DNA from: Candidatus Anstonellales archaeon
GTDB lineage: Archaea > Micrarchaeota > Micrarchaeia > Anstonellales > J096
Direction of reading: 5' to 3'
Assembly (NCBI GenBank): GCA_038740615.1
Contig: JAVYLQ010000021.1
Coordinates: forward strand, 1-8,809
Length of the DNA: 8,809 nt
Shown: positions 849-8,712 of the stretch, piece by piece
Layout: each line of letters begins with the position of its first letter
Position numbering within the stretch: the stretch's first letter is position 1
Position numbers and translations under genes: made by a program
The notes under the pieces: model-generated
Database searches by the model: none
Told to the model about the DNA's origin: nothing
Seen by the model: only the letters and a program-made list of their open reading frames with translations

Positions 849-1556
849 ATGGCTAGAAAACCTATGTTTAAGACAAAATATAATCTGAATGACCAAAGAA
901 TATACGAGATTATTCAGAGATTTGAGAACGAAAATTACATAGGGACTGTTAATAAGCTAGAGGAACTGGTTCAGGAATATGAAGAGGAGAGAAGGATGTA
1001 TCAAGACTACTCAAGAGATGAGCTATACACTGTAAATGATGCTTATAAATATCTGAGAGCTAATGGAATAGATTGGGAGTATAATATATTTAAAGGTAGA
1101 TTGGATAGAGGATCTATTCCAGTCATTATCGGAGATGATGGTAATAAGTACATCCTAAAATCTGTATTGGATAATATCATAGACTTTCATAATGAAGTAT
1201 ATAGCTTACACGAGGCTTATGAGAAAATCAGAAAGGTAAATCCAAGATTGACACTAAGAGCATTTATAGGTAGAATTGAAAAGGAAAAGTTACCTGTGAT
1301 TATCGTTTATAGAAAGAGATTCTTGCCTAAGCAGCTGATAGATGATCTAGTTTATATATACTCAAATTACGTTGAAGTATCGCACGCCCTTAGTATATAC
1401 AGAGAGAACGGATTGAATATCAGTAGAAATACTCTGGAGAGAAGATTAGATAGAGGGATATTACCATTCATAAAATTGGGTAAGAAAAGATTGATTCCTA
1501 AGGATGTATTGATGAAATCTATAGAAGAGGAGAGAAGGTTAAAATTTAACCTCTAG
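849..1556 (+). CDS. DNA-binding protein with three tandem excisionase/MerR-like (HTH_17-type) winged-helix domains and an N-terminal helical region
   Basis: Three ~56-aa internal repeats: LYTVNDAYKYL...RLDRGSIPVI...KYILKSVLD; VYSLHEAYEKI...RIEKEKLPVI...KRFLPKQLID; YVEVSHALSIY...RLDRGILPFIKLGKKRLIPKDVL. Each fits the Xis-like pattern Y-T-x-x-E-A...R-x-x-x-G-x-(I/L)-P...R-x-I-P. Confidence 0.8.
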   Translation: MARKPMFKTKYNLNDQRIYEIIQRFENENYIGTVNKLEELVQEYEEERRMYQDYSRDELYTVNDAYKYLRANGIDWEYNIFKGRLDRGSIPVIIGDDGNKYILKSVLDNIIDFHNEVYSLHEAYEKIRKVNPRLTLRAFIGRIEKEKLPVIIVYRKRFLPKQLIDDLVYIYSNYVEVSHALSIYRENGLNISRNTLERRLDRGILPFIKLGKKRLIPKDVLMKSIEEERRLKFNL

Positions 1557-1787
1557 TTCTCTCTCAATTTCTTCTAATATGTTTTTAAATCCACTCTCAT
1601 CCAATCCTGTTATTGAAATTTGGTATTGATGTATCAGAGGATGTATTTCAATATAGGTCGCTCCAACATTATCCCTCCTATTTAACCTGTCTATGATTAG
1701 CTCTAATATTGCTGTATCGTAGGATTCTAGAACCAAATCTATTTTCTTATCCCGAATCTCTTTAGAGATCAGCTTAAAATACTCCAT
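1539..1787 (-). CDS. rpoL: DNA-directed RNA polymerase subunit L (Rpo11), divergent
   Basis: 82 aa. The ATYIEIHPL segment matches the Rpo11 A-x-Y-x-x-x-HPL motif and the beta-beta-alpha-beta-beta-alpha pattern. The usual EDHTLGN motif has degenerated to YDTAILE. Confidence 0.7.
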   Translation of the reverse strand: MEYFKLISKEIRDKKIDLVLESYDTAILELIIDRLNRRDNVGATYIEIHPLIHQYQISITGLDESGFKNILEEIERELEVKF

Positions 1788-1804: not shown

Positions 1805-1819
1805 AATATTTTTAAAAAT
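1805..1819. promoter_or_regulatory. Bidirectional TATA box between rpoL and tRNA-Pro
   Basis: Perfect 12-bp palindrome ATTTTTAAAAAT (1808-1819), about 27 nt before the tRNA and about 21 nt before the rpoL ATG on the other strand. Confidence 0.6.
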
Positions 1820-1845: not shown

Positions 1846-1919
1846 GGGGATGTGGGGTAACCTGGTTAGCCTGCGACCCTAGGGAGGTCGAGATCCCGGT
1901 TCAAATCCGGGCATCCCCA
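1846..1919 (+). tRNA. tRNA-Pro with AGG anticodon (1881-1883); no intron, CCA not encoded
   Basis: Acceptor stem GGGGATG/CATCCCC with A73; D stem GGGT/GCCT; anticodon stem CGACC/GGTCG with 7-nt loop CT-AGG-GA (U33, G37); variable loop AGAT; T stem CCCGG/CCGGG with TTCAAAT loop. Confidence 0.95.
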
Positions 1920-5695: not shown

Positions 5696-5765
5696 CATGC
5701 CCAGATCAGATTATTGTGGAAGGATTCGTCAGGATTTATAAATGTATTTATTAAATATATTTAAT

Positions 5766-5972
5766 ATGGCAAAGATACTAACTATAAGAGATGAGGTATA
5801 CATTAGATTAAGAAGACTAAAGACCAAACTAGGCACTAGCTTCTCAGATACAATAGACTATCTACTAAACATATATGATAGCCATGGTACCAAATCCAAA
5901 ATTCTAAACCTTAAAGGAATGGTGAATGATAATTATATTTATAAGGATAGGTTGGATAGGTTATTAAGATGA
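5766..5972 (+). CDS. vapB: Archaeal VapB-family antitoxin (DUF217-like, ribbon-helix-helix)
   Basis: MAKILTIRDEVYIRLRRLK...SFSDTIDYLL matches the KTITISDEVYxxLxxLK...SFSDVI consensus. Start reassigned from 5742 to 5766 because TATA TTTATAAA lies at 5735-5742. ATGA overlap with vapC. Confidence 0.85.
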   Translation: MAKILTIRDEVYIRLRRLKTKLGTSFSDTIDYLLNIYDSHGTKSKILNLKGMVNDNYIYKDRLDRLLR

Positions 5973-6331
5973 TCGTAGTTGATACAGATTTTTTAATCGA
6001 TTACATAACTAACAAGCAGGCAGCAGTTAAGAAATTAGAATTGTATATAGGTAGAGAAAAGTTGTACATTACAGATCTGATTTTAGCAGAGTTAACATAT
6101 ACTATCCCATCTCCAGATGTGATAGAGAGCGTTATAGATGCCTTTGAGATATTAATATTTGATGAGAGTGCTGCTCTGGAAATGATAAATATTCTGAAAA
6201 GTTTTCAATTGGAAGAACCTCCTCCATTTAGAATACTTTACAATTCTTCTATAGCACTTTCCAAATCTCTAGCAGTTCTTACCAAGAATAGATCGTTATA
6301 CTCAAGAATCCGAGGAGTAAAGATTCTTTAA
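5969..6331 (+). CDS. vapC: PIN-domain VapC-family protein with partly degenerate active site
   Basis: MIVVDTDFLID, ITDLILAEL and AVLTKN motifs; 120 aa; translationally coupled to vapB. Confidence 0.85.
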   Translation: MIVVDTDFLIDYITNKQAAVKKLELYIGREKLYITDLILAELTYTIPSPDVIESVIDAFEILIFDESAALEMINILKSFQLEEPPPFRILYNSSIALSKSLAVLTKNRSLYSRIRGVKIL

Positions 6332-8637: not shown

Positions 8638-8710
8638 GGGCCCGTAGTCGAGGGGTTAAGACGCCACCCTGACATGGTGGAGATCCCAGGTTCGAATCCT
8701 GGCGGGCCCA
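8638..8710 (+). tRNA. tRNA-Val(GAC); no intron, CCA not encoded
   Basis: Acceptor stem GGGCCCG/CGGGCCC with A73; anticodon stem CCACC/GGTGG with loop CT-GAC-AT (anticodon 8671-8673); T stem CCAGG/CCTGG with TTCGAAT loop. Confidence 0.97.
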
Positions 8711-8712
8711 CT

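Follow-up and report, generated by a model that had tools for sequence, protein, structure and literature searches.

The DNA analysed here (the window) is the whole of an 8,809-nucleotide contig, C21 of a 31-contig assembly, G000, which comprises 541,905 bases at 34% G+C and is 83% complete. Its host belongs to a genus (g1) of hot-spring Candidatus Micrarchaeota (DPANN) with genomes of ~0.5–0.6 Mb, and the runs containing the window's DNA are labelled hot-springs metagenomes. At 1846–1919 on the plus strand lies a 74-nt tRNA-Pro gene, intron-free and without an encoded CCA, whose anticodon, A34-G35-G36, occupies 1881–1883 with A34 at base 1881. The other genes are a helix-turn-helix gene, a weak rpoL candidate and a taw1-like gene around the tRNA, a tRNA-Val(GAC) at 8638–8711 (ARAGORN; RF00005) and an otherwise ordinary complement: topoisomerase VI subunit B, FtsZ, a VapB/PIN pair and an M42 peptidase. 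The VapB-like antitoxin gene (PF02697, E 6e-9) precedes the PIN-domain gene (PF01850, E 1.7e-4, just below the cut-off) and overlaps it by 4 nt, and together they are likely to form a VapBC toxin–antitoxin pair at 5742–6331.

The AGG gene and its surroundings

ARAGORN calls tRNA-Pro(agg) at exactly 1846–1919 on the plus strand, with the anticodon at position 36 of the gene, and Rfam RF00005 matches over its full length (1–71) at 58.8 bits and E 5e-11, the gathering score being 29. The acceptor stem has 7 bp, with G1-C72 and discriminator A73, and the anticodon loop reads C32 U33 A34 G35 G36 G37 A38. ARAGORN, the Rfam score and the sequence agree with a preliminary description of this DNA, which had reported a cloverleaf with U33, G37, G1-C72, A73 and an AGG loop. 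The cloverleaf score and an NGG anticodon with G35, G36, G37, G1-C72 and A73 both assign the gene to RF00005 as a proline isoacceptor of the archaeal type; G35, G36, G1-C72 and A73 are presumably its identity elements for prolyl-tRNA synthetase (ProRS). Single-sequence minimum-free-energy folding gave a D arm unlike that of a cloverleaf and was no better than shuffles (z −1.69); the test of choice for a tRNA is the covariance model rather than such a fold. We conclude that 1846–1919 is a real, canonical and conserved tRNA-Pro gene with an A-starting anticodon.

The upstream neighbour of the tRNA is an HTH_17-domain gene (849–1556, plus strand; Pfam HTH_17, E 8.5e-7), which is kept in both subclades of the genus and serves as a synteny anchor. 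Homologues identified by tblastn lie just upstream of the AGG tRNA in G001, G003, G005 and G002, and the proteins beside the tRNA are 42–58% identical between the two subclades. An A/T-rich stretch at about 1805–1819 (plus strand), 27–41 nt upstream of the tRNA, forms a putative archaeal TATA/BRE region in the sequence. It is identical in G001; A/T-rich stretches occur at a similar distance in G003 and G005 and are absent in G002, and a role as the TATA box of tRNA-Pro(AGG) is plausible.

Downstream, on the minus strand, is a taw1-like radical-SAM gene of wyosine formation (1901–2989; Pfam Radical_SAM and Wyosine_form), which we treat as context outside the decoding function and which adjoins the AGG tRNA in G001 and G003 too. 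The final 19 nt of its open reading frame, stop codon included, lie antisense to the tRNA's 3′ end (1901–1919), and a tail-to-tail overlap of about 16 nt also occurs in G003 and G004. The neighbours had been described as rpoL and taw1. The taw1-like assignment stands, whereas rpoL (1539–1787, minus strand) is weak, its RNA_pol_L_2 match scoring 16.5 bits (E 0.0069) below a cut-off of 27. We considered taw1 as a marker of positional orthology and dropped it, there being no clear ancestral arrangement of a tRNA beside it: of 16 taw1 loci searched with ARAGORN, those of three genus genomes adjoin an AGG tRNA, those of G004 and G014 a UGG tRNA, and the other 11 none.

Contigs of runs X2, X5 and X12, which come from three studies, have A at 1881 and carry the AGG-specific middle of the gene without a difference. 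Run X1 has a single unitig across 1881, and it reads T; because its six differences are exactly those of the UGG paralogue against the AGG gene, we read it as that paralogue (contig C12) and no variant of the AGG gene. A sequencing or assembly error at this base, or a chimera of the paralogues, might be suspected from the 30-nt identical ends of the AGG and UGG genes, at which short-word assemblies break or can mis-join; the UGG–taw1 junction of G004 may be such a mis-join. But with unitigs or contigs from three studies holding the AGG-specific middle, AGG in the independently assembled genomes of four other species, and the same or a variant tRNA with AGG in four GTDB records (L094, L097, L138 and L143), we regard the chance of an error as negligible. 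As far as contigs show, the assembly error that the preliminary description had named as a possible undoing of its claim is refuted.

The X12 contig is 222 nt long, derives from a metatranscriptome library labelled sediment and covers 1861–2075 of the window without a difference. It is the sole RNA-library contig over the anticodon and continues for a further 156 nt antisense to the 3′ end of taw1; the contig may represent the end of the taw1 mRNA, read-through of the tRNA or DNA carry-over. Since it is possibly mRNA or DNA, it makes no statement on the mature tRNA, and we dropped it as evidence on A versus inosine.

Proline tRNA sets in the genus, family and phylum

ARAGORN finds 32 tRNAs in G000, two of them for proline: AGG (C21) and UGG (C12). 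A regular-expression search of this assembly for hidden Pro-like anticodon arms returned only these two genes and no GGG. G34 is present in the boxes of Thr (GGU), Ala (GGC), Ser (GGA), Leu (GAG), Val (GAC), Gly (GCC) and Ile (GAU); Arg(GCG) was not found by ARAGORN in this incomplete (83%) assembly. In G005, 30 of 35 Rfam tRNA matches were examined; A34 occurs in Pro only, and Arg is GCG. The switch to A34 is box-specific, being restricted to Pro among the 32 tRNAs of G000 and those 30 of 35 in G005. This is what the preliminary description had proposed from the G34 of the window's tRNA-Val, now confirmed as GAC. Another ARAGORN call in G005 (L081/L087) is tRNA-Ile(TAT), whose gene has a 7-nt intron; for G000 the program calls only Ile(GAT) and two CAT tRNAs.

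All six genus genomes are 77–88% complete, and absences from them are provisional. AGG accompanies UGG in G000, G001, G003 and G005 and CGG in G002, where UGG was not found, and UGG alone was recovered from G004, which places the AGG pattern in 5/6 genomes. The genes of G001 and G003 are identical or near-identical to that of G000, and G005 and G002 hold a variant that matches it at 62/74 positions; anticodon and D stems differ between the two variants yet remain paired in both. The G004 contig with the upstream HTH gene breaks off 23 nt beyond it, at the expected place of the tRNA, so the AGG gene of G004 is probably unassembled. For the same reason we rejected G004 as a case in which AGG had been lost by recombination and UGG was sufficient by itself. 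In this genome (L004/L254 and L268) the tRNA beside taw1 is UGG, and the flank upstream of it shows homology to the locus of the UGG gene in G000 (C12); the junction is either a recombination between paralogues or a mis-join across the 30-nt identical ends.

The GGG pattern is absent from all six genus genomes and present in 10/13 genomes of six sister genera, in a census whose pattern covers only the 5′ part of the gene. An earlier impression from BLAST and ARAGORN, that most sister genera are without GGG, proved wrong: the genes had been missed because most carry T-loop introns. Insertions of ~10–30 nt lie in the T-arm/T-loop region of tRNA-Pro(GGG) in sister genera g3, g4, g6 and g7, and tRNA-Pro(UGG) of g4 has one too (L166–L169, L171 and L015). 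ARAGORN missed all of these genes and BLAST the GGG ones, so tRNA censuses in these lineages undercount. The AGG pattern is absent in the 11 sister genomes sampled for it, and two further sister genomes outside that sample (G016 and G018) show no AGG among their BLAST/ARAGORN matches. G006 (genus g2, 86% complete) has neither GGG nor AGG.

Across the phylum, the AGG pattern occurs in 11/401 Micrarchaeota genomes sampled, from 4/155 genera and three families; a reversed control pattern gave no match. The state of A34 without G34 recurs in three other genera; of five holders outside the genus that were checked, none has GGG (0/5), three combine UGG, AGG and CGG, and two have UGG and AGG. With AGG in 5/6 genus genomes and GGG in 0/6 against 10/13 sister genomes, and with Pro(GGG) missing and no other A34 tRNA among the 32 of G000, the data support the earlier claim that in this lineage Pro(AGG) has taken over from Pro(GGG).

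Loss of GGG and origin of the AGG gene

In the sister genera the GGG gene sits between two conserved open reading frames. The same frames overlap by 14 nt in G000 (contig C4), likewise overlap in G001 and lie ~45 nt apart in G002, and in neither G001 nor G002 does ARAGORN call a tRNA there. The three genus genomes that are readable at this position (G000, G001 and G002) all have an empty GGG site; as these span both subclades, the gene was deleted before the two split.

The AGG locus is elsewhere: it has the same two genes upstream, orf1 and the HTH gene, in both subclades, and shares none of the neighbours of the GGG locus. The AGG gene of G000 is identical to the UGG gene of its own genome in the acceptor, D and T arms, with 68/74 positions matching overall. 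Compared with UGG genes of their own genome or nearest relative, the AGG tRNAs match at 68/74, 68/74 and 73/74 positions, the last being G005, where position 34 is the single difference. Similarity to GGG tRNAs is lower (55–60/74), the latter differing in the acceptor stem, the T stem and position 38. Because the AGG gene sits away from the GGG site and resembles UGG over GGG, its sequence suggests that it probably arose from the UGG paralogue. The idea that the old GGG gene had merely changed its first anticodon base thus fails on both the empty locus and the likeness to the UGG copy. The simplest reading is that the UGG gene was duplicated once, that U34 became A in the copy and that gene conversion followed while A34 was retained; independent origins of AGG in the two subclades could, instead of gene conversion, explain the likeness between AGG and UGG.

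Probable decoding by A34

Three features of tRNAs whose position 34 is inosine (I34) can be compared with the genus. A34 is encoded in a three- or four-codon box, as the A at 1881 shows; the synonymous G34 tRNA is absent (GGG in 0/6 genomes of 77–88% completeness, with the syntenic site empty); and no CDA-fold deaminase (TadA or ADAT2/3) was found in the genus. PF00383 matched 0/6 genus genomes against 7/13 of the sister genera, in a search that was positive in 12/14 control genomes. PF14437 gave nothing over cut-off in the six, with one 12-bit match in a 770-residue frame of G005 and again 12/14 controls positive. PF02137 was absent from 5/5 genus genomes, a weak negative given a positive control in only 1/14 genomes, and PF00962 was likewise found in 0/5. 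The CDA zinc motif, in the definition that we take to apply, is absent from the 1244 open frames of G000. Within the families searched, and in genomes that are 77–88% complete, an encoded A34 thus coexists with no tRNA A34 deaminase, which is the pattern of an unmodified A34. The undescribed A34-to-I deaminase that the preliminary description had offered as one alternative is unsupported by this search, which found no CDA-fold, ADAR-type or ADA-type deaminase in the genus. Nor do CDA genes and the AGG tRNA co-occur in the other AGG-holding Micrarchaeota, where 2/5 genomes have such a gene. In sister genus g3, G007 encodes a 154-residue CDA-fold protein (L055:1501–1965) whose best NCBIfam match is TadA NF008113, at 95.4 bits with a cut-off of 150; this genome has tRNA-Pro(GGG) and is without AGG.

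The readings cannot be told apart by codon usage. The hand counts in the preliminary description were exact (13 CCT, 7 CCA, 2 CCC and 1 CCG in top6B; 4 CCT and 3 CCA in the HTH gene), but the match of AGG to the dominant codon, which it had stressed, is not specific. Proline codons in G000 are 46% CCT, 39% CCA, 9% CCC and 6% CCG, and the share of CCT mirrors those of ACT (44%) and GCT (47%). The CCC:CCT odds ratio relative to Thr, Ala and Ser has a median of 0.42 (range 0.24–0.87) in 11 AGG holders and 0.62 (0.25–1.25) in nine GGG holders (one-sided Mann–Whitney p 0.086, for related genomes with overlapping ranges). Genes for these counts were non-overlapping ATG-to-stop open reading frames of at least 120 codons, and only 9–60 kb was sampled for most relatives. 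The lowest ratio in AGG holders, 0.24, belongs to G002 (L180–L181, L193–L212; 220 kb, 45% G+C), where CCT makes up 58% and CCA only 12% of Pro codons but codons ending in C are preferred for Thr, Ala, Ser and Arg. Its proline bias may be an adaptation to A34 or a quirk of the lineage. Two GGG holders, G009 and G013, under-use CCC too (0.30 and 0.25), and with ranges that overlap those of the GGG controls (p 0.086) we dropped codon adaptation in G002 as evidence.

We consider it fairly probable that the gene encodes a functional tRNA-Pro with unmodified A34, derived from UGG, that reads CCU and probably CCC and has replaced GGG. The ancestor of the genus lost the family's usual tRNA-Pro(GGG) from its conserved site, and a second UGG-like proline tRNA gene, with A34, is present in the genus. 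In the scheme that we propose, a duplicate of the UGG gene would have become this AGG gene by a U34-to-A change. Gene conversion would since have kept it in step with the UGG gene, with selection holding A34. The product would be charged by ProRS; its body, G35, G36, A73 and G1-C72 match the genome's other tRNA-Pro. Unmodified A34 would pair with CCU by Watson–Crick rules and with CCC probably by an A–C mismatch tolerated in the G/C-rich proline box, leaving CCA and CCG to tRNA-Pro(UGG). No A-to-I step is needed for such decoding, and none of the known deaminases was found that could carry it out. We favour unmodified A34 because the search for deaminases found none and because an AGG tRNA in E. 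coli is undeaminated and yet decodes, as described in the portion of PMC11066159 considered here. According to that portion, an orthogonal tRNA(AGG) derived from M. jannaschii was not inosine-modified in E. coli, decoded CCU and CCC about equally and read all four proline codons to some extent; an A34 mutant tRNA-Pro of Salmonella, which it cites from Chen et al. 2002, was also unmodified. These tRNAs share the anticodon AGG with ours, and their unmodified reading of CCU and CCC is the analogy behind our working model. Unlike them, mutant or engineered and working on bacterial ribosomes, the AGG tRNA described here is encoded by a natural gene that has become fixed across an archaeal genus.

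If instead some enzyme that belongs to none of the known tRNA-deaminase families turns A34 into inosine, the resulting IGG would read CCU, CCC and CCA, as in eukaryotes. This would accord with the excerpted text of PMC11066159, in which an encoded A34 almost always becomes I34 in bacteria and eukaryotes, and the missing G34 synonym wherever AGG was found (0/6 in the genus and 0/5 in other Micrarchaeota) fits the mutual exclusion of I34 and G34 described in the consulted part of PMC8879553. The set of G002, AGG and CGG with UGG not found, resembles the sparing pattern of I34 plus C34. Archaea also make m1I57 by a deaminase; to our knowledge that archaeal enzyme is still unidentified, and it would be one candidate for a non-CDA activity on A34. 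Weighing against inosine, 6/6 genus genomes have no CDA-fold deaminase although sister genera without A34 have one, ADAR-type and ADA-type domains are absent from 5/5, the CDA zinc motif is absent from G000, and only 2/5 of the other AGG-holding Micrarchaeota have a CDA gene. The E. coli case, in the same portion of PMC11066159, shows an AGG tRNA that escaped TadA and still read all proline codons, which makes inosine dispensable. We judge inosine at this position to be unlikely. A broader version, in which several DPANN lineages devoid of all known tRNA adenosine deaminases make I34 in tRNA-Pro with an undescribed non-CDA enzyme and so possess an independent eukaryote-like system within Archaea, strikes us as a long shot.

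The gene could also be a neutral or decaying duplicate of UGG, with tRNA-Pro(UGG) alone reading the four proline codons. The single-base difference between AGG and UGG in G005 would suit such a duplicate, as would G006, whose want of both GGG and AGG at 86% completeness implies that UGG alone may suffice in the family, and the lack of a clear A34 imprint on codon usage. A34 has, however, been retained by five species from two subclades, whose HTH proteins beside the tRNA share only 42–58% identity; base pairing is intact in every stem of either variant, and the gene scores well in Rfam. A34 also persists although the remainder of the gene follows the UGG copy in sequence, and the state of A34 without G34 recurs in three other Micrarchaeota genera. 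A dispensable duplicate is in our estimate improbable, and a functional tRNA with unmodified A34 remains the reading that we prefer.

Eukaryotic tRNA-Pro(IGG) is made by ADAT2/ADAT3 and bacterial tRNA-Arg(ICG) by TadA. Like those systems, the genus encodes A34 and is without the G34 isoacceptor; unlike them, it affects one box only, and the CDA-fold deaminase was not found. Naturally unmodified A34 tRNAs include tRNA-Thr(AGU) of Mycoplasma and some mitochondrial tRNA-Arg(ACG). Among archaea, the nearest likeness is in ARMAN-4 and ARMAN-5, which are Parvarchaeota rather than Micrarchaeota. For these, the excerpted text of Fujishima et al. 2011 (NAR 39:9695, PMC3239211) reports tRNA-Pro(AGG) and tRNA-Leu(AAG) without G34 synonyms, likens the feature to eukaryotic decoding and deals with neither deaminases nor how the gene arose. 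Both cases concern an ultrasmall DPANN-type archaeon with a wobble A in its Pro tRNA and the synonymous G34 tRNA missing; they differ in that G000 has A34 in the Pro box only, its Leu tRNA being GAG. An A34 tRNA-Pro is hence not unrecognised in Archaea, as the preliminary description had supposed, and A34 without a G34 synonym is rare but already known from related ultrasmall archaea. The same excerpt describes T-loop introns in ARMAN-2 tRNAs and tRNA-Ile(UAU) in ARMAN genomes without TiaS. We found no report of A34 tRNAs in Micrarchaeota in the literature searched.

The reviews PMC11066159 and PMC8879553 present archaea, in the parts consulted, as having no A34 tRNA genes, and the AGG genes of G000 and its relatives are natural exceptions to that statement. 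New here are the deletion of GGG at its own site, the probable origin of AGG from a UGG paralogue and the absence from the genus of all deaminase families searched. The locus suggests a concrete route of anticodon turnover in a shrinking genome, in which a G34 gene is deleted and a copy of a U34 gene retargeted by one base. If A34 is unmodified, these would be natural cases of an A34 Pro tRNA replacing G34 and reading CCU and CCC, so far known mainly from mutant or engineered tRNAs. In practice the gain is modest: pipelines that annotate DPANN genomes, and models of their codon adaptation, should allow A34 in the Pro box.

A GTDB-wide pattern scan returned 72 stretches, in which ARAGORN called tRNA-Pro(AGG) in at least 22 archaeal and at least 39 bacterial species records, both lower bounds from a restrictive pattern; two of the remaining stretches were called as other tRNAs and nine gave no tRNA call. 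The archaeal records span Micrarchaeota, Woese-, Pace- and Nanoarchaeota, Iainarchaeum, 'Marsarchaeota' and others, and the bacterial ones Succinivibrionaceae, Puniceicoccales, Alphaproteobacteria and others. Because tRNA backbones differ, the AGG tRNAs of other prokaryotes have, by their sequences, independent origins. The bacterial genes (within L095–L165) cluster in few clades; they are near-identical in many Succinivibrionaceae (Succinatimonas, Succinivibrio and Succinimonas), and further ones occur in Puniceicoccales and in metagenome-assembled genomes of rumen or gut Alphaproteobacteria.
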